Below are positions 18,752 to 56,420 of a stretch of 64,000 nt of DNA, one piece after another. Numbering within the stretch: position 1 is the stretch's first letter; the number at the start of each line of letters is the position of its first letter. Both the position numbers and the translations under genes were made by a program. The stretch comes from Candidatus Zhuqueibacterota bacterium (GTDB taxonomy: Bacteria; Zhuqueibacterota; Zhuqueibacteria; Thermofontimicrobiales; Thermofontimicrobiaceae), in assembly GCA_049322915.1 (NCBI GenBank), contig JBMOPW010000034.1:96001-160000 (forward strand), written 5' to 3'. Below the pieces are notes generated by a model that had not been told where the DNA came from, ran no database searches, and saw only the letters and a list, made by a program, of their open reading frames with translations.

Positions 18752-18824
18752 GACTCATTCTTATACTGTGAAACTCTATTTAATTTTTCAACAGAAATTC
18801 CGCTTTTCAGCACCGATAATTTAG

Positions 18825-19289: not shown

Positions 19290-19318
19290 TTGACTGGAAA
19301 AGTAATTATGTTTATATT
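19290..19318 (+). promoter_or_regulatory. sigma70-type promoter
   Basis: TTGACT-17 bp-TATATT. Confidence 0.55.
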
Positions 19319-41162: not shown

Positions 41163-41172
41163 GAAACGGCTC

Positions 41173-42618
41173 CTATAAGTAAATGCTTTTTTCATTGAAA
41201 ATCGAATCGTCAGCGAAGTAGCGCGCCAATATTTCAAGACAGTGGTTGACGCTGCCGATTCGATCGACATCGATGTGATTCACCGAAACAGCATGCGCCG
41301 AAAACCAGCGCCAGATAATTTCGATTTGCTCAACTGTCAGTTCGCTTTCCGACGATTCAACGGGCTGCGATAGCCAGACAAGCCGGGATTCGATCATGCC
41401 CCAGTCCGGATGGAACCGATCAATTTCCAGCGACTGAGCCGCCTTTGATCCAGCGACAAAATAGAGGACAATGTGCGGCTCGATGGCGGCTGGAAGCAAT
41501 AGGACGAGCCGCCCGGATGCAACGGGCTGCGCGCCCGACGAATGAACTTCAAGCTGGGTGTTGATCTTCGGCCCGAATTGATGAATATACTTGTTCTCCA
41601 GCAGCAGCGCTTCCAGTTCCGAGCCGGTCGGTTCATAGACAAGATCGAAAATAGACGACTGAATGAGCGCTGTCTTCTCGTCGTTTCGCTGCCGCTGAAT
41701 AAAATAACTTCCCACTCGGGATTTGAGGCTCTTCGATTTCCCAACATAAATCACCGTATCCGATTTATCCTTCATCAGATAGACGCCGGGCGAATCAGGT
41801 AAACTGCGGAGATAGTCCCGGTCGAAATTATATCCCGAAAAATCGACCAGGATTTCTTTTTCTTGAATGAAGTCTTCCAACTGTTGCAGGGTTCGCAACC
41901 CATTCGTTTGCAGCGCATCGAACAGCGTGCTCATTATCTCATGCATGAGCGTCAAACGGCTGGGCAGCGTCAACGGCACTGGTATTGTGATCTGAAAATG
42001 CTCAGCGATCGTTTCAAGCGTGGTTGATTTGACATCGGGATTCCATTTTCGAATGGCATTTTTCAGATGAATGGACTCAAATTCATGCTCGATTCCCGAA
42101 TGATAATTCAGTCGAAATTTGAAATCATTTTCCACTCTTTGAGAGAGGCACACTGACGCCTTTGAGCTGTGAAGGTCATGAAGCACTGAAGGGACTTCCT
42201 GTTCAAATCGTCGGGAAACGCCTTCGAGCAGCGGGCTGGCGCTGATTGCGCGCAACAGATTTTCATTAAGATCGAGCGGCGGTTGGATGGCGCAGATTGA
42301 CTGCTGCGCAATTTTGGACTGGTCAATCCGTACGTATCCGAACAGCAGAGGGACAACGATTTTATTCAGGGTTACATATTCAAAGTCGTAAACGACGTAG
42401 CTCATTTCAGCGAGTGAAACATCCTGGCGCTGGCTTTTAACGCTCCACATGCCGGCTTCGTCGCGCACAAAGCGGCCATCCTGGTTCAGCATCGAATGGA
42501 CTATTTTTTCCATGTGCGCCGGATACTCACTTCCCGTGCGAAAAAAATGTGAAATGATTTCCTGAGAGGACACGCTCGCCCCTTTTTGCGCCAGATATTT
42601 ATAGATTTTTTCTTTCAT
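41173..42618 (-). CDS. GIY-YIG (UvrC N-terminal-like) nuclease with degenerate DnaQ-like N-terminal domain
   Basis: LPDSPGVYLM...VIYVGKSKSLKSRVGSYF, TGSELEALLLE...P..N. Confidence 0.8.
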   Translation of the reverse strand: MKEKIYKYLAQKGASVSSQEIISHFFRTGSEYPAHMEKIVHSMLNQDGRFVRDEAGMWSVKSQRQDVSLAEMSYVVYDFEYVTLNKIVVPLLFGYVRIDQSKIAQQSICAIQPPLDLNENLLRAISASPLLEGVSRRFEQEVPSVLHDLHSSKASVCLSQRVENDFKFRLNYHSGIEHEFESIHLKNAIRKWNPDVKSTTLETIAEHFQITIPVPLTLPSRLTLMHEIMSTLFDALQTNGLRTLQQLEDFIQEKEILVDFSGYNFDRDYLRSLPDSPGVYLMKDKSDTVIYVGKSKSLKSRVGSYFIQRQRNDEKTALIQSSIFDLVYEPTGSELEALLLENKYIHQFGPKINTQLEVHSSGAQPVASGRLVLLLPAAIEPHIVLYFVAGSKAAQSLEIDRFHPDWGMIESRLVWLSQPVESSESELTVEQIEIIWRWFSAHAVSVNHIDVDRIGSVNHCLEILARYFADDSIFNEKSIYL

Positions 42619-43219
42619 CCGGCACCTTTTTTAACTTTTCGCGCCAGTAACCCCAGACGCCCCAGAGCAGCATGGCAATGAACGCAACGATTAACAGCCA
42701 GTTGGGAACATTGAAAGTATAGCCAAGCCAGATCAGGATGAAATAGCGAGGGCAACGGCCTGCAAATAGCGCTAATAAATATCTGGACAAAGGATAGCCA
42801 GTGGCGATGCTCAAAAATTTAAATGGATAAAAGGGGATCGGCGTAAAACCTGCAATCACAATCATGGCGAAGGGCGATTTATAAAAGAAATCGACGGATT
42901 TGGTGTAAAGCCTTTTATCATCATAAAGCTTTTTTACTTTACGATGTCGAAAGAGCGGCGTCAGCGTTTCGTAATCGATGAAGCCCGCAATCAACGTGCC
43001 CAGGGAAGCAGCGGCAACCGCAGCAAAGATATTGAATTCTTTGCCATAGTAAAGAAGCACTGGCTCGTGCGGTAAAAATGAAATGTAGACATGAGACGGG
43101 ATGGAATAGAGATAGAGCCATACAATACCCCGCATATCAGGTCTGTATTTCCAGATCAGCAGCGAGCCAATCGCAGATAAAACAAGGATGAGAATGAAAT
43201 AGACGTATTTTTTTTTCAT
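42599..43219 (-). CDS. VTT/DedA-family membrane protein
   Basis: hydrophobic; GFTPIPFYPF...GR..RY. Confidence 0.75.
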   Translation of the reverse strand: MKKKYVYFILILVLSAIGSLLIWKYRPDMRGIVWLYLYSIPSHVYISFLPHEPVLLYYGKEFNIFAAVAAASLGTLIAGFIDYETLTPLFRHRKVKKLYDDKRLYTKSVDFFYKSPFAMIVIAGFTPIPFYPFKFLSIATGYPLSRYLLALFAGRCPRYFILIWLGYTFNVPNWLLIVAFIAMLLWGVWGYWREKLKKVPDERKNL

Positions 43220-43266
43220 GGAATTATCGGGTCGAAAAGTGAGTCGCCCTTCTTTTATTTTAGCAG

Positions 43267-43295
43267 AAAAGCCTCACTGGAATTGTGAGGCTTTT
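43267..43295. terminator. intrinsic terminator ending the redox operon
   Basis: AAAAGCCTCAC-tggaatt-GTGAGGCTTTT. Confidence 0.8.
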
Positions 43296-43330
43296 CAATT
43301 ATAGTTTGGATCTGCTGTTGTATTCTTGTG

Positions 43331-45004
43331 TTATCGCATGGTTCCCAGGTAGGTGGTGGTCAATTGTCGTGTGCGGACATCGGGATTGCTGTAATCTGGC
43401 AGCAGCATCGGCGACACTGCGTCCATGATGCCGGCTTCTTCAACTTCCTTGTTGTAATTTCGGACATGGTCCAGATTCAGCTTTTTTGAAATGCTGGTTC
43501 CCTTGCAGTACTCCGCAGCATTTTTCCCGGCGATTCGCCCGAAGGCAGTCACATCCAGCAATGAATTTCCCATCAGCCGGTTTTCGCCATGAATGCCGCC
43601 CAGCACTTCGCCAGCGACATAGAGACCTTTGATGCTCGTCTCACAGCGGTTGTTTGCTTCCAACCCGCCGTTTTGATAATGCAACGTGGGGTAAATCAGC
43701 ATCGGCTCTTTGGAAATATCAATGCCGTAGCGTCGGAACAAAATGTGCTTGCCGGGGAATTCCCGACGAACCGTGCCTTCGCCATAGAGATCGTCAATCA
43801 TCGGCGAATCCAGCCACACTCCAAATTTTCCGGTCGGCGTTGGCACACCGTTTTTCCGTTCCGTCGAGCACTCTCTGATGATGGCCGCAGCTTCAACATC
43901 GCGGGGTTCACGCTCAAAGACGAACTGTTCGCCGTGAATATTGACCAGATTCGCTCCAGCGCCCCGCACCTTTTCGGTGATGAGAAGTCCCTCGGCCTGT
44001 TCCGGAAAAACAGCGCCGGTGGGATGATACTGAACCGTGTGCAGGAAACATACCGGCACACCCGCGCGATAGCCAATCACCAAACCATCCCCGGTTGCGC
44101 CATAATGGTTTGTCGTCATAAAATTCTGGATGTGCAACCGGCCGCTGCCACCTGTCGCGATGATGACAGACTTTGCTTTAATGATAAAATATTCCTCAGT
44201 TTCCATATTGTAAAGGACAGCGCCGCCGCATTTTCCAGTATCATCCATGAGGAGCTCCACCGCCGGGGAGAACTCGATCACGGTTATATCGCCGGGATGA
44301 TTTCTCACCTCGTCGCGAATGGTGCGCATAATTTCAGCGCCGGTGATATCGCCGGCGTAGTGCATTCGCTTGCGGGAAGTGCCGCCGCCGTGCATGGATT
44401 TCATCCTGCCATCCGGGAATTTGCTGAAAATCATCCCCAGTTTCTCCAACCAGGCTAGTACTTTCGGGGCTTCTGTGACCAACGTGTACGCTAATTCCGG
44501 ATCGTTGACAAAATGCCCGCCGCCCATGACGTCAAGATAATGATAGTACGGCGAATCCTTCCACGTTTTGCTCGCGCCCTGAATGCCGCCTTCTGCCATC
44601 ATGGTATTGGCATCGCCGTTTCGCAATTTTGTCGCAATGATGACTTTCGCGCCGTTCTCACGCGCCAGTAATGCGGCTGAATTACCAGCGCCTCCGCCGC
44701 CAATGACCAGAACGTCTGTCTCCATCCGCACATCATTCAGATTTATTTTATCCGGATTGACGCGGCTTTTAGCCTCGAGTATCGCAGCGTATTCGTTGCT
44801 GATAGCGTATCCTTTGCTCGGGCCAACCCTCAATTTTTTTCGAGTGCCCTGTATAAAATCAGGGTGAAAATTGCGCAGTATTTCCTGTCGTTTATCCACA
44901 GGGATAGCGGTAAATTCCTCTCCCCTCTTTTTTCGCTGAACGCGCTCAGGACGTGTCTTCTCAACCAGTTTTATTAGATTATTAAGTTCTGGTGTATATG
45001 CCAT
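43331..45004 (-). CDS. fumarate reductase/succinate dehydrogenase-family flavoprotein, non-covalent FAD type
   Basis: GGGGAG, ANTMMAEGG (no covalent His), QYHPTG, LITEKVRG, EPRD, PTLHYQNGG, HGENRLMGNSL. Confidence 0.9.
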   Translation of the reverse strand: MAYTPELNNLIKLVEKTRPERVQRKKRGEEFTAIPVDKRQEILRNFHPDFIQGTRKKLRVGPSKGYAISNEYAAILEAKSRVNPDKINLNDVRMETDVLVIGGGGAGNSAALLARENGAKVIIATKLRNGDANTMMAEGGIQGASKTWKDSPYYHYLDVMGGGHFVNDPELAYTLVTEAPKVLAWLEKLGMIFSKFPDGRMKSMHGGGTSRKRMHYAGDITGAEIMRTIRDEVRNHPGDITVIEFSPAVELLMDDTGKCGGAVLYNMETEEYFIIKAKSVIIATGGSGRLHIQNFMTTNHYGATGDGLVIGYRAGVPVCFLHTVQYHPTGAVFPEQAEGLLITEKVRGAGANLVNIHGEQFVFEREPRDVEAAAIIRECSTERKNGVPTPTGKFGVWLDSPMIDDLYGEGTVRREFPGKHILFRRYGIDISKEPMLIYPTLHYQNGGLEANNRCETSIKGLYVAGEVLGGIHGENRLMGNSLLDVTAFGRIAGKNAAEYCKGTSISKKLNLDHVRNYNKEVEEAGIMDAVSPMLLPDYSNPDVRTRQLTTTYLGTMR

Positions 45005-45072
45005 GCCAACACCTCTCAAATTTTGAAAAGTCTATTTCAGAAATTTTGGTTACTTGTTCTTGGATTATAACA

Positions 45073-45831
45073 TTATAAATAACGCTTATCTTCCGGCTCC
45101 CACATCTCATCGGCATTGTCCGGTTCCATCTGTCTCTCTTTATACAAATTCATCAATTCGGTCTTTTCTTTCTTCATCAAATCCCTCAGCATGCTTTCGT
45201 AGCGACCGTCTTCAATCTGCTTCGTGCGCTCCTGCAAATGTTCCGCTTTGGGAAGGATATGCCGGCCATAAATTCGTCGCGACAAAATGCCAATGTTGTA
45301 TTGCACTTCCTCCGCCGGACAGCGGGCAGAGCAAAGTCCGCACATCACGCAGTCGAAGGACAACTCAGCCGCTTTCTCAATGTCGCCGGCCATCGCCATG
45401 GCCACATAATCCATCACTTTGATATCCATGGGACAGCTCAAGGTGCAGGTGTTGCATCCCATACATTTAAAAATTTCCGGGTACAATTTTGGTACATCTT
45501 CCCCGGTCGGGCTCAATTTTTCAATGTCATAGACCGCTTTGTTCCCCGGGAAAAATGGAATTTGCGTGATGTACATCTGCGGTTCGACGACCGTCTGGCA
45601 AGCCAGTCCATAATGGATTTTATAGTCATTCGGAAATCGGTAAATTGTCCCGCAGGCGCCGCAAATACCGCCGCGACAGCCGCATCCACGAATGAGTTGG
45701 TAACCGGCATATTCCATGGCTTTTTGAATGGTGAGAGAGTCAGGAACGTCGTACCGCTTGCCCATTATGAAAATGGGAATAAAATTTTTATTTTCAATCA
45801 GGCTGTCTTTTGGTTCTTTTGATTTACTCAT
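45073..45831 (-). CDS. SdhB/FrdB-like Fe-S subunit ([2Fe-2S] + 2x[4Fe-4S])
   Basis: GCRGGICGAC...LACQ, CMGCNTCTLSCP, CVMCGLCSARCP. Confidence 0.88.
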   Translation of the reverse strand: MSKSKEPKDSLIENKNFIPIFIMGKRYDVPDSLTIQKAMEYAGYQLIRGCGCRGGICGACGTIYRFPNDYKIHYGLACQTVVEPQMYITQIPFFPGNKAVYDIEKLSPTGEDVPKLYPEIFKCMGCNTCTLSCPMDIKVMDYVAMAMAGDIEKAAELSFDCVMCGLCSARCPAEEVQYNIGILSRRIYGRHILPKAEHLQERTKQIEDGRYESMLRDLMKKEKTELMNLYKERQMEPDNADEMWEPEDKRYL

Positions 45832-45882
45832 TGAAACTCCTCCTGAACAGAGAATGTGCTGTATCTGAAAATTTATTGTAAT

Positions 45883-46365
45883 TTACCACGTGATAAAAAT
45901 TCCCAAAACAAAGCCAATAATGAGAGCGACTATCACCATGAAATAGTTGTCCAGCAATTTCATTTTCTTTGACTGGGGGATGACTTCGACCACTCGCTCC
46001 TCGACCACGAAATCCTTGATGGAAGTATCCACCTGTGGGCAGGACATAACGCAGGCATAACATTGTTCACAGTCCTCTGCAACCAGCGCTTCCAATGCAA
46101 ACGACGTACGCTGAACCGTGCGCGCTCTTCTGTCCGGCTCTCTTCGCAGCACCGGGCACGAATCGATGCAATTTCCGCAGGCAATGCAGGCGCGATCCCC
46201 TTCGATGGCGACATGCTGTGGCAAGTAGAGTCGATGATAGGGCTCTATTCCGCGTGAGAGCAGACGGCATCTGGCGACCGGTGGTTCTTTGATATCAAGA
46301 ACAGAATTCAAAACATTCTGGGTCTTGTCGGTTAAAAGCGTCTCTTTTGCAGTTATGTACGCCAC
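45883..46365 (-). CDS. 2x[4Fe-4S] ferredoxin with C-terminal membrane anchor
   Basis: CIACGNCIDSCP, CEQCYACVMSCP, C-terminal hydrophobic helix; SD AAGGAG favours GTG 46365 (ORF track 46380). Confidence 0.85.
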   Translation of the reverse strand: MAYITAKETLLTDKTQNVLNSVLDIKEPPVARCRLLSRGIEPYHRLYLPQHVAIEGDRACIACGNCIDSCPVLRREPDRRARTVQRTSFALEALVAEDCEQCYACVMSCPQVDTSIKDFVVEERVVEVIPQSKKMKLLDNYFMVIVALIIGFVLGIFITW

Positions 46366-46396
46366 AATTATCTCCTTCACAATATGTATTGGTTAA

Positions 46397-46496
46397 CCCT
46401 ACAACGTCACTTGAATTTATTAGCACTATATATTGTATCTGCTAACAACCAAACATACAATATAGTGTGAGCAACTTGCTAAATGACGTTGTAGGG
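46397..46496. mobile_element. 100-bp MITE-like element flanked by TTAA
   Basis: perfect 13-bp TIR CCCTACAACGTCA / TGACGTTGTAGGG, TTAA on both sides, AT-rich interior. Confidence 0.7.
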
Positions 46497-46547
46497 TTAA
46501 TCTGTATCTTCAATTCGCCTCAATAATGAAGCCTGTTCATCGCCTGA

Positions 46548-47462
46548 CTACTCAGCCGATTCATCAATGTAGGGATGACATTTCACGCAATTTTCGTTTT
46601 GCGTCGTATCTTCACAGTCCGCTTTGAAAATTTGAAACTTCCCGTGTATTTGACCATGATGGCATTTCTGACAGGTTTCCACTTTCGGCGGCGCGACCGG
46701 CTCGCCGGGATGCGTCAGAGGAACGACATTTTCATGACAGCCAGCGCAGGTGATCGGGTTCCGAGCCACGAAGTTGACATTTTTATCAACGGTGGCGCTT
46801 TGATCATCGCCCATTTTATTTCTGAGGTGGCACTGCCCACAATTTCCGGTCTTAATTTTTTCGAGAAGTTGAATTTCAGCCTGTTTGTTTTCCATGATGA
46901 CTTTGTCGGAAATCAAATCCTGATACAATTTCTGATCGTCCGGGCTATACGTTTCAAATCGAAAATGCAGCCGCTTGTTGAAACGAAGTCCGATTTTTCT
47001 CAATGTGTCCGATGCCAGGAGGTATGGCTCGCGCTCGTCAACATCCAGCCTGTCCGGGTGACAGATGAGGCACTGCTCACTGGTATAGGTAGCGCGGGGC
47101 GCCACTTCTTTCGCGAATTTCAAATTCGCGGCATTCTCTGCAAACGTACCGCTTTTCTGAAAACTTCTTCCATAAATAGTCTGCACCGTCTTGTCCTTAT
47201 GGCACTGAACGCAGGTGAATTGGCTTTTATCGATCCCCTTATGGACGGGCAGGTCTTTGTCAAAATAAAAATAAGGTCCATTATTTTCATGGCAGTTATA
47301 ACAGAAATTCGACGTCTGGTTATAGGCGATCAGACTCGTTAAAAAAGTAATGGCGCCAATCGGAACTACAATGAGAATGACGAGCAAATAATGTTTGAAG
47401 ACAAAATCTTTGACTTTCCCGGGAAAGCGTATGACGTTTTGAATGAATGTCGTTATTTTCAT
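46548..47462 (-). CDS. membrane-anchored multiheme cytochrome c (7 CxxCH)
   Basis: N-terminal TM; CYNCH, CVQCH, CLICH, CGQCH, CAGCH, CQKCH, CVKCH. Confidence 0.9.
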   Translation of the reverse strand: MKITTFIQNVIRFPGKVKDFVFKHYLLVILIVVPIGAITFLTSLIAYNQTSNFCYNCHENNGPYFYFDKDLPVHKGIDKSQFTCVQCHKDKTVQTIYGRSFQKSGTFAENAANLKFAKEVAPRATYTSEQCLICHPDRLDVDEREPYLLASDTLRKIGLRFNKRLHFRFETYSPDDQKLYQDLISDKVIMENKQAEIQLLEKIKTGNCGQCHLRNKMGDDQSATVDKNVNFVARNPITCAGCHENVVPLTHPGEPVAPPKVETCQKCHHGQIHGKFQIFKADCEDTTQNENCVKCHPYIDESAE

Positions 47463-47484
47463 TATCAGGACTCAGTTCATTTCG

Positions 47485-49719
47485 TTAGGCTTTTTCAATA
47501 GAAACGATGGTATCTTTTTCCGAAAGCCCAAGACCCAGTGTGTCTTTTTGGACTTCGATAAGAATATTGGTATTGACGCCGTTATGCTGTTTTTCCCACC
47601 ACAGGATGGCTGAGTCAGGATCAGCGGTTTCAACTTTTTTGCCCAGGGCAAAATTTCCCATGGCCCAATGTCCTAACCCGGAGCGAAGCGCAATCGCCCG
47701 GGGATGGACACCCTGGGATAGCCTCACTTCCGTTTCAATTTCCCCTGCTTTTGATTTCAATCGAATTTTCTGTCCATTGCGAATGCCCAATTTGTGAGCA
47801 GTTCTGGGATTAATCATGGCCTCGTTGACATGCGAAATCTCTGCCAACCATTTGGCATTGCCCGTGTTCGGCGTCATGACATTGCTCGTGAACGGAATTA
47901 AATAGAGCTGATTTCGGCTTAATTGAATCGGTTCCTGCAATGGAATATACCGGGGCAACTCGAACTCCCCTTTTCGCCGCAACTCGGATGAGGCTATTTC
48001 GAACTTCTTCGAAGGCGTCGCAAACCCTGATTTTTGATAAGTCACAAACGATCGGCCGGGATTGTCAGGCTCCCACATTCCCACTTTTTTCAAGTTATCG
48101 AAATCTTTGGCAGAATTCATCCCGGGAACCTGAGCGGCGATTTCTTTGAAATAATCTTCGACGTGTTTATAGTTCAAATTTTTCATGGCCGCGCCGCCAA
48201 TGGAAGAAGCCAGCAGTATCCAGATTTCAGCCAATGATTTGGACTCCCCGCGCGGAGCGATGGCCGGCTGTCCCAGCGTCACTTGCGGAACGAAATGGTA
48301 CGATGGGGCGACCGAAAGATCCCAGCTTTCCAGATGAGTGGCTGCTGGAAGCACAATATCGGCCAATGTGGCTGTTTCGCTCATTGCGGACTCGATGGCC
48401 ACAGCGAAAGGCACTTTCGATTCATCTGAAAATAGCTCTTTCATCATGTCGCTACTGGCGGAATCGTACACCGGGTTGCTGTGGAATGAAACGAGCGCAT
48501 CGATTTTTTCCCGGCCTTCGACCAATGCCTGGTAAAAATCAACGGGCGCATGGGACAGATCATCCTCGGCACCGAAGTCAGACAGATCGAATTTCTGCGG
48601 CAGGCAGTATCCACCTTTTTGATCGATATTGCCGACGACGGCATTCAAGAGCATGATCGATCGTTCGTTTTGAACGCCATTGCTCCGGCGGGTGACGCCG
48701 CTGCCAGACACAGCGACGGGATGTTGCCGTCGGGCGAACTCAATGGCCAGTTCCCTGATTTTTTGGGCAGGAATTGTGCAGATGGACTCGGCTTTTTCCG
48801 GCGTGAACTGACTCAGATAGGACTGCAATTCACTCGCGGAAATGTTAGTCCATCTGGCGATGAAATCGGCGTCGTGCAGTTGATTTTGCACGATGACATT
48901 GGCCAGGGTCAGAGCTAAAAGCGCATCGGTGCCCGGCATTATGGGCAGCCATTCTGCGCTTCTTCCGGCGGTATTGGACATGCGGGGATCGACAGTGACC
49001 AGGCGGGCGCCGTTGTTCATTTTTGCTTCAATGACCCGCTGGCTGATTGCCACGAACAACGGATGGGACTCAAAAAAGTTTGCGCCGAACGACAGGATGA
49101 AATCACTGTGCTCCACATCCGGAATTTCGTAACGCGCGCCCCAGGTAATTTTCTGGGCGTAATTTTTATTGAGATCGGAAAAGACCGGCGATGTGATGAC
49201 TCGGGCATCCCCCAACGATCTGATGAATCGACGACTCAATCCGGTGAGGTATCGCTCTTCCGAATTGAAGATGATTTCACCCGACCGTCCTGCCGAATCG
49301 CGGAGCCGCTCGGCAATTTCTCGCAACGCTTCCTGCCATGAGATTTTCTCCCAGGAACCGGCGCCGCGTTTTCCTTTTCGTTTCAGCGGCGTCAATGGGC
49401 GATTGGGATCATACACCAGATTCATCCCGGCAATGCCGCGCGCGCAAATCTTGCCACGATTGTTGGGATGGCGGGGATTGCCCTGAATTCCCATTAACCA
49501 GTCGTTTTCAAAAAAGCCAATGAGTCCGCACTGCGCCGGACAGAGATTGCAGAATGTGGGAGTGCCTTTGCGGAATTCTTCGGAGAGAAAGGAAACATTC
49601 TTGCCGGAGCTGCTGATCTCTGCGAACAGTGGGCTGAACTCATTCAGAAACAGTGTGGAAAAAAGTCCAGCCGATGTATATTTAATGAATTTTCGTCGAT
49701 TCAAATTTTGTTCAATCAT
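47485..49719 (-). CDS. Tat-exported molybdopterin oxidoreductase catalytic subunit (DMSO reductase family, Psr/Ttr/Arr-like)
   Basis: NRRKFIK Tat motif, CNLCPAQC...C FS0 motif, DPR, PGTD, ADIVLP...LE, INP..A..LGI, GLGH. Confidence 0.9.
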   Translation of the reverse strand: MIEQNLNRRKFIKYTSAGLFSTLFLNEFSPLFAEISSSGKNVSFLSEEFRKGTPTFCNLCPAQCGLIGFFENDWLMGIQGNPRHPNNRGKICARGIAGMNLVYDPNRPLTPLKRKGKRGAGSWEKISWQEALREIAERLRDSAGRSGEIIFNSEERYLTGLSRRFIRSLGDARVITSPVFSDLNKNYAQKITWGARYEIPDVEHSDFILSFGANFFESHPLFVAISQRVIEAKMNNGARLVTVDPRMSNTAGRSAEWLPIMPGTDALLALTLANVIVQNQLHDADFIARWTNISASELQSYLSQFTPEKAESICTIPAQKIRELAIEFARRQHPVAVSGSGVTRRSNGVQNERSIMLLNAVVGNIDQKGGYCLPQKFDLSDFGAEDDLSHAPVDFYQALVEGREKIDALVSFHSNPVYDSASSDMMKELFSDESKVPFAVAIESAMSETATLADIVLPAATHLESWDLSVAPSYHFVPQVTLGQPAIAPRGESKSLAEIWILLASSIGGAAMKNLNYKHVEDYFKEIAAQVPGMNSAKDFDNLKKVGMWEPDNPGRSFVTYQKSGFATPSKKFEIASSELRRKGEFELPRYIPLQEPIQLSRNQLYLIPFTSNVMTPNTGNAKWLAEISHVNEAMINPRTAHKLGIRNGQKIRLKSKAGEIETEVRLSQGVHPRAIALRSGLGHWAMGNFALGKKVETADPDSAILWWEKQHNGVNTNILIEVQKDTLGLGLSEKDTIVSIEKA

Positions 49720-49743
49720 GCTTTTAAAATCCCAATCTCATGG

Positions 49744-50640
49744 TTAAATCAGCGGTAAATGTTCGCCACCCAGAACGACCACATATCGCATGAAGAAAAT
49801 GCCAATCATCACCAGGACAGAAGCGATAACCAAATTTCTTACAGATCTGAATCGCGGGGTCACGATGATTGTGAGTGGAATAATTTTGCCTAATATGTTT
49901 TCAATGAAAATGAAGTACGGGCTGAATTCATGGTACATCAATAAATCGGCCGCTTCTTTCGCTTCGGTGTGGGACGTGATCAAAACGATGACGTCGCTCA
50001 AAACGAGAAACAGGTCAAACACAATGACGCCGGCCAGAATTGTACCCAGTGAATAAATCAAGCTCGTGTTGACTATTTTCTCCTTTGTGAAAAAGCGGTC
50101 CCGAATATAACAGACCAAAATCATCATAGCAATACCAGACACCATGGCAGAGACAAGAAACAAAATCGGCATCAATGCTGTGTTCCAAAGCGCCCTGGCT
50201 TTTGCCAGCGCCAGAATGAATCCGGTGTAGCCGTGCACCATAATTGCCAGAGGTAGGCCAATTAACCCGAAGGTTTTCGTAAGTTTCATGTTTCCCTTGA
50301 ACATGAAATAACCGTAGATAATTGAGTTGATCGGGTAAAGCGTCAGCAGAAAGGATCCCCAACTGATGGGCGATGTGAAATTGATATAGGCGAACAAATG
50401 CCAGGGTTTGAGCGGTTGGCCAACATGGATCAGCAAAAACATCGGAGCGGCTACGAGAAGAATGGTTGCCAATACGACCCCGATTTTTCCCAGTGGTTTG
50501 AACTTGGTCAATCCAAAGCCATAGGCCAGTGTGGACATGATGAACGAGCCAGCGCTCAAACCGGTCAAATAAAAATAGAGGGCAATATAAATTCCAAATG
50601 TCTCTTGAATGTGAATGTTATACAGGAGCTCGACATTCAT
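49744..50640 (-). CDS. NrfD/PsrC-family membrane anchor
   Basis: IALYFYLTGLSAG, SPISWG, HGYTG, LWN....P.LFL.SA..SG, RY. Confidence 0.92.
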   Translation of the reverse strand: MNVELLYNIHIQETFGIYIALYFYLTGLSAGSFIMSTLAYGFGLTKFKPLGKIGVVLATILLVAAPMFLLIHVGQPLKPWHLFAYINFTSPISWGSFLLTLYPINSIIYGYFMFKGNMKLTKTFGLIGLPLAIMVHGYTGFILALAKARALWNTALMPILFLVSAMVSGIAMMILVCYIRDRFFTKEKIVNTSLIYSLGTILAGVIVFDLFLVLSDVIVLITSHTEAKEAADLLMYHEFSPYFIFIENILGKIIPLTIIVTPRFRSVRNLVIASVLVMIGIFFMRYVVVLGGEHLPLI

Positions 50641-50643
50641 GGA

Positions 50644-51231
50644 TTACTCTTCCTTTTTCTCTTTTATGTCCGCTGTTTGCAGATCAATGTCGATATAAAA
50701 TACATGAGGATCGGTTCCCATCATCGGTTTCAGGACAGAGACGTTATTGGTGGCAATCAATTTTGCAATTTCGCTATTCTCGTCATTCAGATCGCCAAAG
50801 ATCCGCGCGCCAACCGGACACGCATCCACGCATGCTGGTGGAAGCCCTTTCTCCACGCGATGCACGCACCAATCGCATTTCTGACAGAAATTCATAATCG
50901 GATTGATGTACCTGACGCCGTAAGGACAGGCCGCCATGCAATAGCGACAGCCGATGCAGAGATGCGGATCGATCGTCACAATACCATCCTCTCGCTTTTT
51001 TGAGGCGTAGGTCGGACAGACAGTGACGCAAATTGGATCTTCACAATTATTGCACAGCAGCGGTAAAAACGAAATCGATGTGTTGGGATATTCGCCCTTT
51101 GCAGCCTGTTTCACCCACGACCGCCAGACGCCCAATGGCACGCTGTTTTCGCTTTTGCATGCGACAGAGCACGTGTTGCAGCCTATGCATCGCCGTAAAT
51201 CTATCAGAAAGCCGTATCGTTTCTTCGCCAA
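50644..51231 (-). CDS. four-cluster Fe-S subunit (PsrB/TtrB/NrfC-like)
   Basis: CIGCNTCSVAC, CNNCEDPICVTVCP, CIGCRYCMAACPY, KCDWC...PACVDACP; SD GGAGG favours TTG 51231. Confidence 0.92.
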   Translation of the reverse strand: MAKKRYGFLIDLRRCIGCNTCSVACKSENSVPLGVWRSWVKQAAKGEYPNTSISFLPLLCNNCEDPICVTVCPTYASKKREDGIVTIDPHLCIGCRYCMAACPYGVRYINPIMNFCQKCDWCVHRVEKGLPPACVDACPVGARIFGDLNDENSEIAKLIATNNVSVLKPMMGTDPHVFYIDIDLQTADIKEKKEE

Positions 51232-51470
51232 ACTTAACAACCTCCATTTATTTAAAGAGAAAGTGAGAATAATCAGAATGAAACCGGTTCCGTGTCAGTA
51301 GTCGGGATGACGTTACTTTCTTCACCTTCCTCATTCCTCCACGAAGGAAAGAATTCGAATCTGAGAGTGTCATCGTAAATCGGATAGTCGCATGTCGAAA
51401 TCACCTCCAGCTTAACCAGTTGATAGACTGATTTTCCAACTATCCTGATTATTCCACTTTCCGTTCTCTA

Positions 51471-52436
51471 TTATACCATTTTTTTTGCTCGTTCTCTTTG
51501 TCGCACAAAACTGATGGCTGCTGCCGCGATGCTGGGTCCCGAATCCCCCACCGGACATTTCCCAGCGCAGCGGGAGCACGCCACGCAATATTTCGCCAAC
51601 CTCTTGACTTTTTCATAATCGCCCAACCGCGTGGCCAGAACCATGGTCATGGGATAGGGTTCGCCATCGACGATTTTCACGGGACAGGCGCCCACGCAGG
51701 TCTGACAATTGTAACAATTCAATGCCTGCCCAGTGCCTTGAATCAACGCTGGCTGCAATGTATAGTCAAATACTAAGACGATGCAAAACAGAATGGCCAG
51801 CGCATTCAACGTCGTCATATCAAATTGAAATCTGGAAAAGTAATGCATCACGTTTGTCACGGCATTGAATTCCGGATGTTCCGGCATACCCGATAACACC
51901 GCCATGGAAACCGCTTCGCGGAACCCTTCCATGGTTTCGATGGAACCGTGAATTGTTGGCGGCACAAAATCGATGTCCAGCCGATTCGCCTTGATCACCT
52001 GGTCGGCAAGCCCGTCCAGCGCTGAAATCATTTCCTGATGCTGCAGAATATCGATGGCCTGAATTTTTCCATCTTCAACATTGACAGCAACATGAATGGG
52101 GCCGCGAAGCCCGGATCCTGCGCCGAGAAATTCGCCATTTTCAACCCAGGCAAGGTCAGGCGGGAAATGCTCTTTGATGTAGCTCGACACGCGCTGATAT
52201 TGCACAATGTAATAAAGTCCGAAAACAATTCCCAAAATCAAGACAGGGATGATGATGATAAAATAGGATTGCTTTCGAACGATGTACGTTTTAATTGCGC
52301 TGTACAGCAACAGAATTCCCAGAAGAGCAAAAAGCAAAAACCTTCCGGAAACGAAAGCGAACGCTGTGATGACAGTCAGCATGGCCAAACGCCATGGCCG
52401 CTCATATATGATTGAGAAATTTAGTTTAGCCAACAT
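51471..52436 (-). CDS. membrane protein with FMN_bind-like domain and C-terminal 2x[4Fe-4S] domain
   Basis: three N-terminal TMs, GSGLRGPIHVAVNVEDGKI..I.IL.HQE, one more TM, CYNCQTCVGACP and CVACSRCAGKCP. Confidence 0.8.
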   Translation of the reverse strand: MLAKLNFSIIYERPWRLAMLTVITAFAFVSGRFLLFALLGILLLYSAIKTYIVRKQSYFIIIIPVLILGIVFGLYYIVQYQRVSSYIKEHFPPDLAWVENGEFLGAGSGLRGPIHVAVNVEDGKIQAIDILQHQEMISALDGLADQVIKANRLDIDFVPPTIHGSIETMEGFREAVSMAVLSGMPEHPEFNAVTNVMHYFSRFQFDMTTLNALAILFCIVLVFDYTLQPALIQGTGQALNCYNCQTCVGACPVKIVDGEPYPMTMVLATRLGDYEKVKRLAKYCVACSRCAGKCPVGDSGPSIAAAAISFVRQRERAKKMV

Positions 52437-53046
52437 TGCCTCCAGAGACGTCGGAGCGATTCAACCATTGCGCCACTTCATCGATAAAGCCTTTATTGAT
52501 CAGCCCTTTTTCGAAGGCATGCTGCACCATGCTTCGAGGAATTTTGTTCTCGCGCAATGCCTTCATGGTCAGCAACTGCATGCTGCCGAAAATCTGGGGA
52601 AGGTTCAAATATTGCACGCAAAAGCCCTGACAGTTGCCGCAGCGAATGCAGCGCAATCCTCCATTCCGCAAAAACCGATTGTAATCTGTCACGCGGGCAG
52701 CGACCACCAGTTCGGCCTGAAACGCAATGCCCACCGGACATTTATCCTGAGTTCCGTAACACGCGCGGCATTCGTAGCAATAGATGCTTTGCGGAATGCC
52801 ATTCAGCACAGCTTTGCCGACATCGATTGCCAGAATCGTGGCAATGCCCAGCATGGCCGCCCGATTGAGATTGATGGTGAGCGCGCGATCATTGACGTTC
52901 GCGAAAAACTGAAAGCGCCGAATCCCCGGCATCACCATGGGCTGGTCTTCCTGAAAGCGGACAGCGGTCGGTTTGGTTTCCTTCTCTTTGCTGCTTTGTG
53001 TATGTTCGTTTTCCATCATGATTTCAATTCTATGTAAATGGTTCAT
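52426..53046 (-). CDS. membrane-associated Fe-S protein (HdrC-like cysteine pattern)
   Basis: CYECRAC......CP and CIRCGNCQGFC, one hydrophobic segment; start 53046 (TAATG coupling) or 53019/53016. Confidence 0.75.
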   Translation of the reverse strand: MNHLHRIEIMMENEHTQSSKEKETKPTAVRFQEDQPMVMPGIRRFQFFANVNDRALTINLNRAAMLGIATILAIDVGKAVLNGIPQSIYCYECRACYGTQDKCPVGIAFQAELVVAARVTDYNRFLRNGGLRCIRCGNCQGFCVQYLNLPQIFGSMQLLTMKALRENKIPRSMVQHAFEKGLINKGFIDEVAQWLNRSDVSGGNVG

Positions 53047-53198
53047 TAATTTGGCAGCATCAACGCCATTAGCAGTCCCGCGATTAAGCCACCCAACGCG
53101 CCTTGCATGAGCTCTTTCGGAGTTTTCATATCCAGAGAATACGCAATGATGACTCCGGAAACAGCGCCGGCAAAAAGGAATGATAGAATCGTCAACAA
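53046..53198 (-). CDS. 50-aa two-helix membrane protein (absent from ORF track)
   Basis: SD GAGAGGA then TTG; MLTILSFLFAGAVSGVIIAYSLDMKTPKELMQGALGGLIAGLLMALMLPN*; resembles the C-terminal hairpin of the upstream transporter; TAATG-coupled to next gene. Confidence 0.75.
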   Translation of the reverse strand: MLTILSFLFAGAVSGVIIAYSLDMKTPKELMQGALGGLIAGLLMALMLPN

Positions 53199-53211
53199 AT
53201 TTCAATCCTCT

Positions 53212-54900
53212 CTATTTGGTTCTTCTTACAATCGACAATGTTTTAGGAACCATGCCTCCGATGAGTAAGGCAGCGAAGGTTCCACCGATGAAGCCCTGAA
53301 TCAGTTGCATCAGTTTGAAATCATAAACCGAAAGCGCCAGTACTGCCCCGGCAATTCCACCGGAGACCAGAAAATAAACGAGCTGCATTTTCCAGTTGCG
53401 ATTTGTATCTTTGCTCAGGGTTCGACTCACGAACGACATGATTCCGATAGAAATGAGGACGACGACTAATGTGTATACGGCCAGCATTAGCAGGTCCTGG
53501 GAGAAGTCCGGATTATTGGGAGAAAACACAGTGAAATTCATGAACTTCATGTAGATTGCAGCAATCGGCGCCATTATGGCCATTGAAGCGAATGTGTAGG
53601 CGCCTTTGATATAGCCGGTTTCAGCGCGCATCTGGCCTTCGCCCATTGTACCTCCGCCGCCGAGCGGCGATGGTCCGCAGGATGTGGTGGCGTTGATCAT
53701 GTAAGCGGACATGACGATGGCCAATTGGGGCCATGTGATTAAATTGAATTTGGCCGGGCCGAAAAGATACAGCACAGGAACAAGCGCTGCCGTGAGAATT
53801 CGGGAGCATGAAAGAGGCAGAATTGTCTGCATCTGAACGAAAATTGCCAGCATCCCGGCAACGCCCAATATCTGAACGGATGACAGACTTTTCAGGATCA
53901 CGCCAAGCGCATCGAATCCGCCAGTGGCGGCCAACGAACCGGCTGCCATGAATCCGGCTGCCATGGCAGTGACTGGCAGAAGAATAATACCGTTCATCAA
54001 ACTCTGGATGGAAGCGCCGCACAGAAGCACAATCAAGATACCGCCAGCAACGAGCACTGTTTGCACCGGCATTTTACCGAACGGCTGGAAAATGGCGATG
54101 AGCAATGATGCGATGAAAATGAAAAGCGACAAATACCCTTTGAAGGGCGCTTTTACTTTCGGTTGGCTGACTCTCTCTTCGGCGGGCCGATTCGTCGGTT
54201 TATCGCGAAGCGAGACATCCTCGGGATAGAGTTTTTGGGAGATAATTTTCAAAAAAAGCGCGGTCAGGGCAGTGCCAATCATCAGCGCAAAGGCCTGCGG
54301 CGAGCGCAGAATGCCGTCGCTGGCGGTCGGAAAAAAAGCACCGAGGAAACCTTCGCCGATTTGCCCAACGCCGCCAATGGGCGACGGGCCGCACGATCCC
54401 ATGGCATTTCGTGTGAAAGCGCCAATTAGTACAATCAACTGAGTCCGTGTGAGGATGCCCATTCCACCTTCATAGCCGAACGAAAAAAGGAGCGGCAGCA
54501 ATGCAGCAGCGATAATTCGTCCGCACGGCAGTGAAGCGATGACCGGCAAATTGATGATGATGACGAGGGTTCCGGCGATGCCGATCGGGGTTTTTCTCAG
54601 CTTGTCGATGATGACTTTTAACGCATCGAACCCTTTGGTTGCGTCCAGTGCGCCTGCCAAAAACAATCCCCCCAGCAGTGCGGTGATAGGATGTAAAATG
54701 ATACCGCCGATCATCTCATTTGGAAGCAGCAGCGCGCTTTTCAATCCATCGGTAGAAATTCGAAAGATGGCCCCAATGATCAAACACACCAGGCTTACTA
54801 AAACGAGGACCGTCTGAACAGGTAAATTAATTTTTCTGAATAGCGTTAAAACCATGGTGACGATGAAGATCGTCAACGTAATATAACCTAAAAACTCCAC
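53212..54900 (-). CDS. polytopic secondary transporter with internal duplication (IT-superfamily-like, possible carboxylate carrier)
   Basis: many TMs; repeated motifs PVQTVLV, ATxGFDAL, C.RI..AAL.P.L, SCGPSP.GG.G..GEG in each half. Confidence 0.7.
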   Translation of the reverse strand: MEFLGYITLTIFIVTMVLTLFRKINLPVQTVLVLVSLVCLIIGAIFRISTDGLKSALLLPNEMIGGIILHPITALLGGLFLAGALDATKGFDALKVIIDKLRKTPIGIAGTLVIIINLPVIASLPCGRIIAAALLPLLFSFGYEGGMGILTRTQLIVLIGAFTRNAMGSCGPSPIGGVGQIGEGFLGAFFPTASDGILRSPQAFALMIGTALTALFLKIISQKLYPEDVSLRDKPTNRPAEERVSQPKVKAPFKGYLSLFIFIASLLIAIFQPFGKMPVQTVLVAGGILIVLLCGASIQSLMNGIILLPVTAMAAGFMAAGSLAATGGFDALGVILKSLSSVQILGVAGMLAIFVQMQTILPLSCSRILTAALVPVLYLFGPAKFNLITWPQLAIVMSAYMINATTSCGPSPLGGGGTMGEGQMRAETGYIKGAYTFASMAIMAPIAAIYMKFMNFTVFSPNNPDFSQDLLMLAVYTLVVVLISIGIMSFVSRTLSKDTNRNWKMQLVYFLVSGGIAGAVLALSVYDFKLMQLIQGFIGGTFAALLIGGMVPKTLSIVRRTK

Positions 54901-54927
54901 CTTTTCCTCATCAATTTTTGGGATGGT

Positions 54928-55260
54928 CTATCGAGCGCACGTGTTCTGAAATCCTGATTTCTTTTTAAGTGAAAATGGCAGATTCACTAAATACTTATCG
55001 TCTGTCTGAGAGATGTGAACAGTGTCACCAATCTGAATATTCCCCATGCACATCGTGCATTTCGAGGCTTCGGCTTCGATGATTGTCCCATTGGACAACT
55101 TCACCTTCATGCGGCTCAAAATGAACTCCTCGATGCCAAGTCGCGCCGGGCAAAACTCGAGCACGGTTCCTTTCCGGTGATTTTTGATGCGGTAAATTTC
55201 TGTGGCCACATAAAAAAGAATGAGCCCGAGAAATGTGTAAAATGATACAGTATCGTACAT
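54928..55260 (-). CDS. small membrane-anchored hypothetical protein with CxxC
   Basis: N-terminal TM, CTMC; tightly packed in the operon. Confidence 0.7.
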   Translation of the reverse strand: MYDTVSFYTFLGLILFYVATEIYRIKNHRKGTVLEFCPARLGIEEFILSRMKVKLSNGTIIEAEASKCTMCMGNIQIGDTVHISQTDDKYLVNLPFSLKKKSGFQNTCAR

Positions 55261-55263
55261 CGG

Positions 55264-56223
55264 CTACATACTCCAGGAGAACACATTCACTTGTTTCAGC
55301 TCTGAATCCGTGACATACAGGCGGGACGCGGCGTCGATGGAAATCGAGACAGGCCGTTTCAATCCTTCCGTCCAAACACCAATGAAACCGCCTTCAGGGG
55401 TAAACTTTTGAATACGGCCGTTGACGGTATCGCAGACGTATACATTCTGCTGACCATCGAGGCTGATGGCTTCTGGCAAATTGAGCTGACCTTTGCCGCT
55501 TCCGTTTTCAGAAAATTTGAATTGAAACATGCCGTCACTGGAAAGCACTTTCACCTGGCCATGTTTGCTATCGACGACGTAGATCGTGCCATTTTCCGCA
55601 ACCGCAACATCGGTGACAATGCGGAACCGATAGTCACTGCTACCCCGAGCCAGATTCTTGGGATCATCGCCCAGATCGCCAAAATTGGCAACGAGCGACA
55701 GGGTCGATTTATCGTACACAGCCAGCATGTGATTGCGAGTGTTGCAGACGTAAATTTTATCCCGGACAAAAATTCCTTTGGGGGTATAAAATGCTTCAGG
55801 GTATCCACCGACGGCGCCGAATTGCTGTTTGTAATTGCCCAGGGCATCCAGAATGACAACTCGCCCGTTATTTGAATCGACGACATAAACGTCACTGGTG
55901 TCCGCATCAATAGCAATTCCCTGAGGATAATTGAATTGACCAGCGCCGGAACCAGGCTGTCCGACCCGGCGAATTGGCGTCCCTTTTTCATCGAAAATAT
56001 GCACGCAATACCCACCTGCGTCGGTGACATAGATGGTGCCGTTGGGGCTAACAGCCACGCCGTAAGGATCGATGAAGCCGCGAATCGTTAGTGTAGCCGG
56101 GGTGCTTCGGACAATTTTTGGAAAGGAGAAGCTGATAGCGGAAGCCGCGCTCAAAGCAAGACTGGTTTTGAGGAATTTGCGACGAGTAATTTTGTGAGAC
56201 TGATTTCGATTTTCGTTCATCAT
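55264..56223 (-). CDS. Tat-exported NHL-repeat beta-propeller protein
   Basis: TRRKFLK, repeated P.GIA.D...YV.D..N.R blades. Confidence 0.9.
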   Translation of the reverse strand: MMNENRNQSHKITRRKFLKTSLALSAASAISFSFPKIVRSTPATLTIRGFIDPYGVAVSPNGTIYVTDAGGYCVHIFDEKGTPIRRVGQPGSGAGQFNYPQGIAIDADTSDVYVVDSNNGRVVILDALGNYKQQFGAVGGYPEAFYTPKGIFVRDKIYVCNTRNHMLAVYDKSTLSLVANFGDLGDDPKNLARGSSDYRFRIVTDVAVAENGTIYVVDSKHGQVKVLSSDGMFQFKFSENGSGKGQLNLPEAISLDGQQNVYVCDTVNGRIQKFTPEGGFIGVWTEGLKRPVSISIDAASRLYVTDSELKQVNVFSWSM

Positions 56224-56257: not shown

Positions 56258-56305
56258 AAAAAAAAGACTATAAAGGGAAATCGTGGCTTCCTCCTTTTAT
56301 AGTCT
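56258..56305 (-). terminator. intrinsic terminator within the operon leader
   Basis: minus strand AGACTATAAAAGGA...TCCCTTTATAGTCT followed by a T run, between promoter and first gene. Confidence 0.8.
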
Positions 56306-56391: not shown

Positions 56392-56420
56392 AATATAAAT
56401 GATGATTGTTTAAAAGTCAA
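56392..56420 (-). promoter_or_regulatory. sigma70-type promoter of the redox operon
   Basis: TTGACT-17 bp-TATATT. Confidence 0.65.

Follow-up and report, generated by a model that had tools for sequence, protein, structure and literature searches.

A stretch of 64,000 nucleotides from a Candidatus Zhuqueibacterota bacterium (contig JBMOPW010000034.1, positions 96,001 to 160,000), hereafter the window, contains 13 open reading frames arranged head to tail on the minus strand from position 56223 to position 43331. This check of the window bears out the run of 13 co-oriented genes reported in an initial annotation of the same DNA. The genes, designated g01 to g13, encode a β-propeller and small or membrane proteins (g01 to g04), membrane iron-sulfur (Fe-S) proteins (g05 and g06), a molybdoenzyme module (g07 to g09), a cytochrome c (g10), a membrane-anchored ferredoxin (g11), and a fumarate-reductase-like enzyme (g12 and g13). 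Intergenic distances range from –11 to 68 nucleotides, except for gaps of 230 nucleotides between g06 and g07 and of 167 nucleotides between g10 and g11. In the reading that we favor, at somewhat less than even confidence, the cluster would specify one membrane-bound respiratory assembly, the partners, electron direction, and substrates of which we infer. All coordinates below are those of the window, and all 13 genes lie on the minus strand.

Redox subunits encoded by the cluster

The last two genes of the cluster, g12 (45073 to 45831) and g13 (43331 to 45004), encode an SdhB/TfrB-like Fe-S subunit and a TfrA/FrdA-like flavoprotein, respectively. The start codon of g13 was placed at M6 (45004), which gives a protein of 557 residues matching the database homologue P0121. 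The FAD_binding_2 domain (PF00890) was detected in g13 with an E-value of 9.4e-75, and the best alignments were obtained with Sdh/Frd flavoproteins (E = 5.5e-67, versus 1.4e-5 for AprA). The best family match was TfrA (NF004900), at 348.7 bits, below the equivalog cut-off of 718. In an alignment with E. coli FrdA, g13 matched every residue of the fumarate site (H232, T244/E245, R287, H355, and R390). The histidine that binds FAD covalently (H44 in FrdA) is replaced by asparagine, g13 reading A-N-T where FrdA and Sdh1 have S/A-H-T. Among Frd variants, non-covalent binding of FAD goes with fumarate reduction and not with succinate oxidation. Since the FAD of g13 is predicted to be non-covalent, the enzyme most likely reduces fumarate rather than oxidizing succinate. 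The C-terminal domain Succ_DH_flav_C (PF02910) was not found in g13 at E ≤ 0.01, the FAD domain being followed by approximately 50 residues, and the same model matched two other genes of the genome. At its N-terminus, g13 has an extension of 95 residues devoid of signal features. A periplasmic, Tat-exported flavoprotein of the methylmenaquinol:fumarate reductase type was considered and rejected, as this extension harbors neither an RR motif nor a hydrophobic stretch.

The partner subunit g12 consists of a 2Fe-2S-type N-terminal domain and of two complete CxxCxxCxxxCP motifs. It matched TfrB only over positions 19 to 186 of 488 (E = 2.2e-6), and family scans revealed no CCG domain in g12 and no Sdh_cyt, SdhC/D, or SdhE-type CCG anchor among the 13 proteins of the cluster. 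The initial description of SdhB/SdhA-like proteins lacking FrdC is therefore upheld, in the absence of a cytochrome b or CCG anchor and with retention of the catalytic residues of FrdA.

The g12-g13 pair was also detected in two further families of the class to which the window's organism belongs (77% identity for g13, 66-69% for g12), where it is preceded by HdrC-, HdrB-, and HdrA-like genes and an MvhD gene, and adjoins genes for phosphoenolpyruvate carboxykinase (PEPCK) and the small subunit of a NiFe-hydrogenase. In a Coatesbacteria genome, one g12-g13-type copy is located after HdrA/MvhD-type genes and another near genes for succinyl-CoA synthetase and a DUF2085 protein. By sequence, g12-g13 is thus a portable two-subunit module resembling TfrAB. 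The N-terminal extension of g13 is kept in all relocated pairs, marking it as a trait of the family rather than an adaptor to the membrane. The HdrC, PEPCK, and succinyl-CoA synthetase contexts are consistent with an enzyme of C4-dicarboxylates to which HdrC-like modules supply electrons. Where tfrAB genes of bacteria are intermingled with flx-hdr genes, they have been proposed to encode putative fumarate reductases of the reductive tricarboxylic acid cycle (PMC6315080). Stand-alone copies of the g13-family flavoprotein adjoin DUF2085 genes in one Coatesbacteria and one Zixibacteria-like genome (L098, 8203-8886; L100, 11844-12554), and a gene for a DUF2085 membrane protein is present in the window on the minus strand (59772 to 60311), 3.5 kb upstream of the cluster. 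The DUF2085 protein may be another partner or anchor of the flavoprotein.

Three proteins of the cluster combine hydrophobic helices with domains predicted to bind two [4Fe-4S] clusters or, more generally, with two-cluster ferredoxin domains. The product of g11 (45883 to 46380) is an HdrC-like 2×[4Fe-4S] ferredoxin, with HdrC as the nearest solved relative (E = 6.5e-6), and ends in one hydrophobic helix forming a C-terminal membrane anchor. The product of g05 (52426 to 53046, about 206 residues) comprises a conserved N-terminal segment, one hydrophobic helix, and an HdrC/RnfC-like two-cluster domain in which the motifs CxxCxxCx5CP and CxxCxxCx3C are conserved. The most likely start codon of g05 is the ATG at 53046, which shares one base with the stop codon of the preceding gene, g04, rather than the TTG at 53205. 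The product of g06 (51471 to 52436) displays a NosR-like architecture, with N-terminal helices, an FMN_bind domain predicted to be periplasmic, one additional helix, and a cytoplasmic 2×[4Fe-4S] domain. The FMN_bind domain was weakly matched in the window copy (E = 0.0019) and was detected in 13 of 21 aligned homologues, with a best E-value of 1.4e-11, in agreement with the earlier labeling of g05 and g06 as membrane Fe-S proteins, one of them FMN_bind-like. Flavinylation occurs at the motif [S/T]GA[S/T]; the sequence TGAT was found only in Zixibacteria-like copies of g06, the window copy reading HGSI at this site. None of the 21 g06 homologues matched PF12801 (NapH-like). One ApbE gene is present on the same contig. 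The association of extracytosolic FMN_bind domains with membrane Fe-S proteins corresponds to a described class of transmembrane electron-transfer systems (PMC8238504).

The product of g10 (46548 to 47462) is a heptahaem cytochrome c anchored in the membrane. Its N-terminal part resembles NapC/NirT/NrfH, matched Cytochrom_NNT (PF03264) at 32.2 bits for a cut-off of 24.1 and contains one helix (residues 17 to 35). Members of the NapC/NirT/NrfH family typically bind four haems. Seven CxxCH motifs were found in g10 and likewise in 52 of 55 homologues. The initial labels of a seven-CxxCH cytochrome and, for g11, of a ferredoxin with a transmembrane anchor both stand. The genome encodes MenA. The dsrA gene was not found in this genome, which is 96% complete.

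The products of g07 to g09 have the composition of a complex iron-sulfur molybdoenzyme of the PsrABC type, namely a Tat-dependent subunit with molybdenum-bis(pyranopterin guanine dinucleotide) (Mo-bisPGD), a four-cluster subunit, and an NrfD protein. The four-cluster subunit, PsrB/TtrB/DsrO-like g07 (50644 to 51240), matched Fer4_11 (E = 2.6e-25) and TtrB (213.8 bits, cut-off 416), and has no signal peptide of its own. The membrane subunit g08 (49744 to 50640) is of the quinone-interacting NrfD/PsrC type (NrfD, E = 1.3e-44). The catalytic subunit g09 (47485 to 49719), of the Psr/Phs/Qrc kind, harbors the domains PF00384, PF04879, and PF01568, the RR motif of its Tat signal, and the cysteines of cluster FS0 (CxxCxxxC...C). 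Its best NCBIfam match was PhsA, at 309 bits for a cut-off of 694, and no equivalog cut-off for Phs, Psr, Ttr, Arr, or Qrc was reached. Cys173 of PsrA aligned with a serine of g09 in a stretch of the alignment that is of low confidence.

Synteny, flanks, and transcription signals

The 13 proteins were mapped onto 80 loci around g03 homologues (80 of the 105 genome matches of g03), all related genomes being metagenome-assembled. Of 40 related genomes searched, 13, which belong to two families of one order, encode proteins 79-89% identical to g03; proteins 60-70% identical were found in Desulfomonilaceae/Syntrophales, in Zixibacteria, and in one Coatesbacteria genome. Counterparts of the cluster were observed in genomes of KSB1, of Desulfomonilaceae/Syntrophales, and of Zixibacteria-like bacteria. 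Among the 54 loci with at least 6.5 kb of sequence downstream of g03, 46 contained g04 to g06 and g10 to g12. Of the remaining eight, six were Zixibacteria-like loci in which genes are inserted, one was limited by its flank, and one came from Coatesbacteria. Upstream of g03, a gene for an NHL propeller was present in 68 of 69 loci with sufficient room, the exception carrying a PD40 propeller. Homologues were detected in 75 of the 80 loci for g04 (45-90% identity), in 56 for g11 (52-83%), and in 50 for g13 (64-83%). Median identities across loci were high for cytoplasmic and membrane parts (g13, 70%; g04, 70%; g03, 67%; g12, 62%; g11, 59%; g05, 53%) and far lower for periplasmic parts (NHL propeller, 35%; molybdenum subunit, 26%; cytochrome, 25%).

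A consistent failure of the molybdoenzyme module to co-occur with the Sdh-like and transporter module had been set beforehand as an observation that could refute a link between them. The PsrB and NrfD genes were adjacent in all 45 loci that contained g03 and g13 and had remaining sequence, five additional loci ending within 466 nucleotides. The initial proposal that the molybdoenzyme is a component of the chain is in this respect strengthened, but the module is also the loosest part of the set. It is located between g06 and the cytochrome gene in five loci (KSB1 and one other) and 609 to 2361 nucleotides past g13 in 40 loci, as in Desulfomonilaceae; it is missing from the single mapped Zixibacteria-like cluster; and identity between loci reaches no more than 25-49% for its catalytic subunit, the least conserved part of the set (median of 26%), with subtypes that differ between the two lineages. 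In a Desulfomonilaceae locus (L022), genes for a sigma-54 activator and a module with a TtrA-like protein of 1075 residues were observed upstream of the core (85-8426), and a trihaem c7-type cytochrome followed by a second Ttr/Phs-like module downstream of g13 (17636-21670).

These variations bear on an alternative in which the set comprises two or three neighboring systems, a propeller with a carrier, Fe-S proteins with a cytochrome and a TfrAB-like enzyme, and a Psr/Ttr-type reductase, that are syntenic owing to shared physiology or that travel together. Besides the changes in place and subfamily of the molybdoenzyme module and its absence from the mapped Zixibacteria-like cluster, this alternative accounts for the insertion that separates the propeller and carrier genes from the rest in Zixibacteria-like loci, for the presence of all sub-modules at separate places in Coatesbacteria, and for the coincidence of the 230- and 167-nucleotide gaps with module borders in the window. 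However, the order and adjacency of ten core genes are kept in 46 of 54 loci from at least two phyla, start codons within the core overlap or almost abut the preceding stop codons, and g04 ties g03 to g05 both by homology, as described below, and by overlapping stop and start codons. We regard a set of independent systems as unlikely.

The block that parts g03 from the core in Zixibacteria-like loci spans about 7.5 kb (L082 and L087) or about 10 kb (G043). It encodes a B12-binding radical-SAM enzyme, a membrane methyltransferase of the PEMT/ICMT type, a protein of approximately 800 residues without an assigned family, and tetratricopeptide repeat (TPR) proteins; the block, or methyltransferase and TPR genes, was observed in L082 (11702-19155), L084, L087, L088, L090, and L080 (11658-14479). 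A PEMT/ICMT-type methyltransferase gene and a TPR protein gene are also found downstream of g03 in Coatesbacteria. The full run of genes from g04 to g12 is present further along the same contig in the Zixibacteria-like genome G043, as are g05- and g11-like genes in two others (G044 and G045).

The flanks of the cluster are unrelated to it, with a gene for an S9 peptidase upstream and genes for VTT/DedA, GIY-YIG, and C25 peptidase proteins downstream. The C25 (gingipain-type) peptidase gene (36348 to 41270, minus strand) encodes 1640 residues with an FlgD_ig-type C-terminal domain, and several further secreted peptidases are encoded within the 64-kb window. The VTT/DedA-family gene comes next after the flavoprotein gene both in the window (42599 to 43219, minus strand) and in one genome of the same family, with 69% identity, and a VTT gene is located two genes past a g11-g12 pair in Coatesbacteria (the counterparts are at 518-1111 in L118 and 11627-12436 in L113), but this neighbor is not kept at other KSB1 loci.

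The initial annotation placed one promoter at 56392-56420 and a terminator at 43267-43295. A putative sigma-70-like promoter matching the consensus at 10 of 12 positions (TTGACT, 17-nucleotide spacer, TATATT) is indeed present on the minus strand at 56392 to 56420. The region contains only slightly more promoter-like sites than shuffled sequences do (26 observed versus 18.6 ± 4.4). Between this site and the start codon of g01, the minus strand contains a strong hairpin followed by eight U (56262 to 56305; –18.9 kcal/mol, z = –2.5, one of 200 shuffled sequences folding equally well), which makes a single promoter doubtful. The leader containing this hairpin matched no Rfam family above threshold. 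The hairpin may be either the terminator of the upstream S9 peptidase gene or a leader attenuator, and could also be a riboswitch without an Rfam match. After g13, a GC-rich, terminator-like hairpin of 12 base pairs was recovered at 43266 to 43296, scored on the plus strand in the scan, but few T follow it on the minus strand.

The four-cysteine membrane protein g03 and its partners

The product of g03 (53212 to 54900) is a membrane protein of 562 residues that matched no Pfam or NCBIfam family, as was the case for Pfam in eight distant full-length relatives; a sub-threshold match to CitMHS was obtained for one fused relative. The protein is internally duplicated, and Atlas features point to SLC13/CitMHS. 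A profile search for the family among 1.84 billion representatives returned 79 clusters at 50% identity, all close relatives falling into one of them. A first AlphaFold2 model, based on 12 close sequences, was poor (pLDDT of 54) and was not used. The model based on a 45-row alignment including distant relatives (pLDDT of 90.4) displays an elevator fold of the DASS/SLC13 type with two helical hairpins and two broken helices. The nearest folds are those of dicarboxylate and sulfate carriers, namely VcINDY with bound fumarate, NaDC3 with succinate, and DiT1.

Four cysteines of g03 (C126, C170, C365, and C408) are invariant in full-length relatives of 24-42% identity, where they belong to LPCG(R/H) and SCGPSPxGG motifs, one pair per half of the protein. 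In the predicted structure, they occupy both hairpin tips (residues 123-126 and 361-365, reading LPCG and LSCS/LPCG) and both helix breaks (residues 169-177 and 407-415). In DASS carriers, hairpin tips and helix breaks build the substrate site, in which SNT motifs bind Na+ and the carboxylate. Residues 457 to 562 of g03 add three C-terminal helices, the last two of which are homologous to the product of g04 (53046 to 53198), a two-helix membrane peptide of 50 residues designated pep50. The profile of the g03 family matched pep50 with an E-value of 2e-6. By sequence comparison, pep50 and the C-terminal hairpin of g03 are paralogous. Since pep50 copies the tail of g03 and its stop codon overlaps the start codon of g05, these observations hint at a packing mode shared by g03 and the Fe-S proteins. 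Prediction of a complex of g03, pep50, and g06, with g06 as the scored partner, gave 0.19 for a mark of 0.32 and no verdict either way.

Two genes precede g03. The first, g01 (55264 to 56223), encodes a predicted periplasmic protein of 319 residues folded as a six-bladed NHL β-propeller. The NHL match (E = 2.7e-30) is strong, and an RRxF motif (R14, R15, and F17) is nearly invariant among homologues. The assignment of a Tat signal made in the initial annotation is less secure than that of the propeller, as Tat models were at or near their cut-offs (TAT_signal, 21.4 for a cut-off of 22.7). The propeller has only two near-invariant histidines and no cysteine, which gives no support to a NosZ-like metal site. 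The second gene, g02 (54928 to 55260), encodes a protein of 110 residues with a hydrophobic N-terminus and a CxxC motif invariant in 14 aligned sequences; scans returned no family, and leads to DUF2500-like proteins came from the Atlas only. The earlier labels of a CxxC membrane protein for g02, of a protein with duplicated halves for g03, and of a 50-residue membrane peptide for g04 were all confirmed. Half-size versions of the g03 domain are fused behind NosD-like β-helix or CARDB domains (P0255, P0258, P0269, and P0318), suggesting that the g03 family generally works with an extracytoplasmic partner rich in β-structure.

The initial annotation proposed that g03 imports a dicarboxylate. The fold is that expected of such a carrier, but the binding-site positions are occupied by four invariant cysteines, and pairing with the propeller is observed without an Sdh-like gene, so that dicarboxylate import is now one of several readings. 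In its plainest form, g03 would be a C4-dicarboxylate carrier, importing fumarate and possibly exporting succinate, that feeds the reductase from outside the redox complex. The nearest folds and the Atlas features are in agreement with this proposal, as is the presence of a fumarate-reductase-like enzyme in 50 of the 80 loci. However, the hairpin tips and helix breaks hold LPCG(R/H) and SCGPSPxGG, with cysteines that are invariant down to 24% identity, and no carrier family of Pfam was matched. In addition, carriers seldom retain 60-85% identity from one phylum to another, the propeller is kept where no Sdh-like gene is near, and half-size relatives are fused to NosD-like or CARDB domains. A simple dicarboxylate carrier is a rather unlikely explanation. 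Another option is a carrier for a thiophilic anion, which is compatible with the Ttr/Psr-type neighbors.

Alternatively, g03 might act by analogy as a redox subunit that moves electrons across the membrane, its four cysteines either binding an Fe-S or metal centre within the membrane or forming a dithiol relay. The model places two cysteines in each inverted repeat at positions that should meet in the middle of the membrane. No other transmembrane electron carrier is encoded, and such a centre would supply the missing route. The neighboring genes encode membrane-anchored ferredoxins and an FMN_bind domain of the NqrC/RnfG type, and g03 is as conserved as the catalytic subunits. There is also a precedent, as the NqrD-E pair is described as holding an intramembranous [2Fe-2S] cluster on cysteines of both subunits, alternately accessible from either side and passing electrons to NqrC (PMC10643135). 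On the other hand, g03 has no sequence relation to NqrD/E and its fold is that of carriers. In Coatesbacteria, moreover, g03 is accompanied only by a PD40 propeller, a PEMT/ICMT-type methyltransferase, and a TPR protein, and queries with the cluster proteins detected no homologue of g05 or of full-length g06 in that genome. Redox function of g03 is a distinctly improbable proposal. An extended form, which we consider just as doubtful, is an electron elevator, whose cysteine-held Fe-S or metal centre would be exposed in turn to the HdrC-like ferredoxins of the cytoplasm and, on the periplasmic side, to the FMN_bind domain and the heptahaem cytochrome, and which would make of the cluster a third, independently evolved machine of the Rnf/Nqr kind.

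A possible respiratory assembly and comparison with known systems

If the cluster encodes one respiratory assembly, as we tentatively propose, g13 and g12 would form its cytoplasmic catalytic end, a fumarate reductase of the TfrAB type with non-covalent FAD. The HdrC-like [4Fe-4S] domains and membrane helices of g11, g05, and g06 would replace the cytochrome b or CCG anchor, tether the enzyme, and supply it with electrons, and NosR-like g06 would place its FMN_bind domain on the periplasmic side. The NapC/NrfH-type heptahaem cytochrome g10 would link the assembly to menaquinol and to the Psr/Ttr-type molybdoenzyme module g07-g09, which may turn over a periplasmic substrate, probably a sulfur compound. 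An electron path across the membrane would connect these parts. The products of g01 to g04 would form a conserved membrane and periplasmic sub-module, in which g03 may be a subunit resembling an anion carrier, with thiols lining its site; the identity of the cargo or cofactor is the least certain part of the proposal.

Were g13 instead to act on a substrate of the FAD_binding_2 superfamily other than fumarate (such as aspartate, or a sulfur oxyanion in the manner of AprA), the cluster would belong to a sulfur-compound pathway supplied by the Psr/Ttr-type enzymes and a thiol-lined carrier, but this is very improbable: the Ttr/Phs-like modules on both sides of the core in Desulfomonilaceae, the cysteine-lined site of g03, the score of NadB models (275.5 bits), and distant matches to the alpha subunits of PAPS/APS reductases are outweighed by the much better alignment of g13 with Sdh/Frd than with AprA, by the conservation of its entire fumarate site, by paralogous contexts that include PEPCK and succinyl-CoA synthetase, and by the failure to find dsrA in the genome.

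Several observations weigh against the proposal of a single respiratory assembly. The canonical threonine motif for flavinylation is missing from the window copy of g06. In addition, the cluster encodes no haem b protein and the helices of g06 contain no conserved cysteine, leaving no obvious transmembrane electron-carrying cofactor. The two long intergenic gaps and the upstream hairpin with its eight U make a single operon uncertain. The molybdenum subunits of KSB1 and Desulfomonilaceae, which are 25-28% identical and encoded at different positions, may be independent neighbors. The flavoprotein gene of Zixibacteria-like genomes is located elsewhere, beside a DUF2085 gene, and Coatesbacteria g03 and its propeller have no Fe-S or Sdh-like genes nearby. 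Finally, a canonical SdhA with its C-terminal domain is encoded elsewhere in the genome, indicating that the g12-g13 enzyme is an extra one.

If correct, the proposal of a single assembly would reveal a new way of attaching fumarate reductase to the membrane and the periplasm, widespread in uncultured lineages of sediment and groundwater (KSB1, Desulfomonilaceae/Syntrophales, and Zixibacteria), the energy metabolism of which has been deduced almost entirely from known modules. The g03 family is very conserved and unnamed, with four cysteines where elevator-type carriers bind their substrate, and the chemistry of its cargo or cofactor is likely to be new for this fold. The locus also offers concrete candidates for electron transfer across membranes without haem b. 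Should g03 act as an electron elevator, cytoplasmic fumarate reduction would be coupled to periplasmic redox chemistry without haem b and possibly without quinone, and an ion or anion could move with each turnover.

The initial annotation did not recognize the architecture as a described complex, and no publication describing the gene set was found in a literature search at the level of listings and abstracts. The set nevertheless shares features with several known systems. Compared with the DASS/SLC13 carriers and the wider ion-transporter superfamily (VcINDY, NaS1, NaDC3, Pho90, ArsB, and TRAP-M), g03 stands apart by its identity of 10-14%, its lack of a Pfam match, its cysteine motifs at substrate-site positions, its three extra C-terminal helices, and its obligatory propeller neighbor. 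With NqrD/NqrE (RnfA/RnfE), g03 shares cysteines that two inverted-repeat halves are predicted to contribute in the middle of the membrane, and a neighborhood of FMN_bind and membrane-anchored ferredoxin proteins; scans returned no match of g03 to the NqrD/E or RnfA/E families, and the likeness is one of analogy only. The NosR/NapH-like flavinylated proteins (PMC8238504) resemble g06 in the succession of an outer FMN_bind domain, membrane helices, and ferredoxin-type clusters inside, whereas g06 has fewer helices, a degenerate flavinylation motif in the window copy, and no PF12801 domain in its 21 homologues.

Among larger complexes, the transmembrane redox complexes of sulfate reducers (Qrc, Hmc, Tmc, and DsrMKJOP) and the PsrABC-type molybdoenzymes bring together at one locus, as does the cluster, a multihaem cytochrome c, PsrB-like, NrfD-like, and molybdenum-subunit-like proteins, and cytoplasmic Fe-S proteins. 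Partial matches were obtained to QrcB/C/D, DsrO/P, and HmcB/C. No cut-off was reached for any of them. In contrast to these systems, the cluster encodes neither a haem b subunit nor a CCG protein of the HdrD kind, its cytoplasmic end is of the fumarate reductase type, and the FS0 cysteines are present in g09. Complex II, exemplified by E. coli FrdABCD, has in common with the cluster an FAD_binding_2 flavoprotein with fumarate-site residues, a 2Fe-2S-type Fe-S partner, and, by prediction, membrane attachment. It differs in that g13 lacks the histidine for covalent FAD and Succ_DH_flav_C, both ferredoxin motifs of g12 have four cysteines, and no SdhC/D or SdhE-type anchor is encoded.

The thiol:fumarate reductase TfrAB of methanogens is similar in that TfrA is the best family for g13, the flavoprotein and Fe-S protein form a two-subunit module, and the pair of the relatives follows HdrC/B/A and MvhD genes. 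However, g13 scores well below the TfrA cut-off (348.7 versus 718), lacks a C-terminal domain, and has a 95-residue N-terminal extension, g12 lacks the HdrB-like CCG domains of TfrB, and the partners encoded at this locus are membrane proteins and a cytochrome c.

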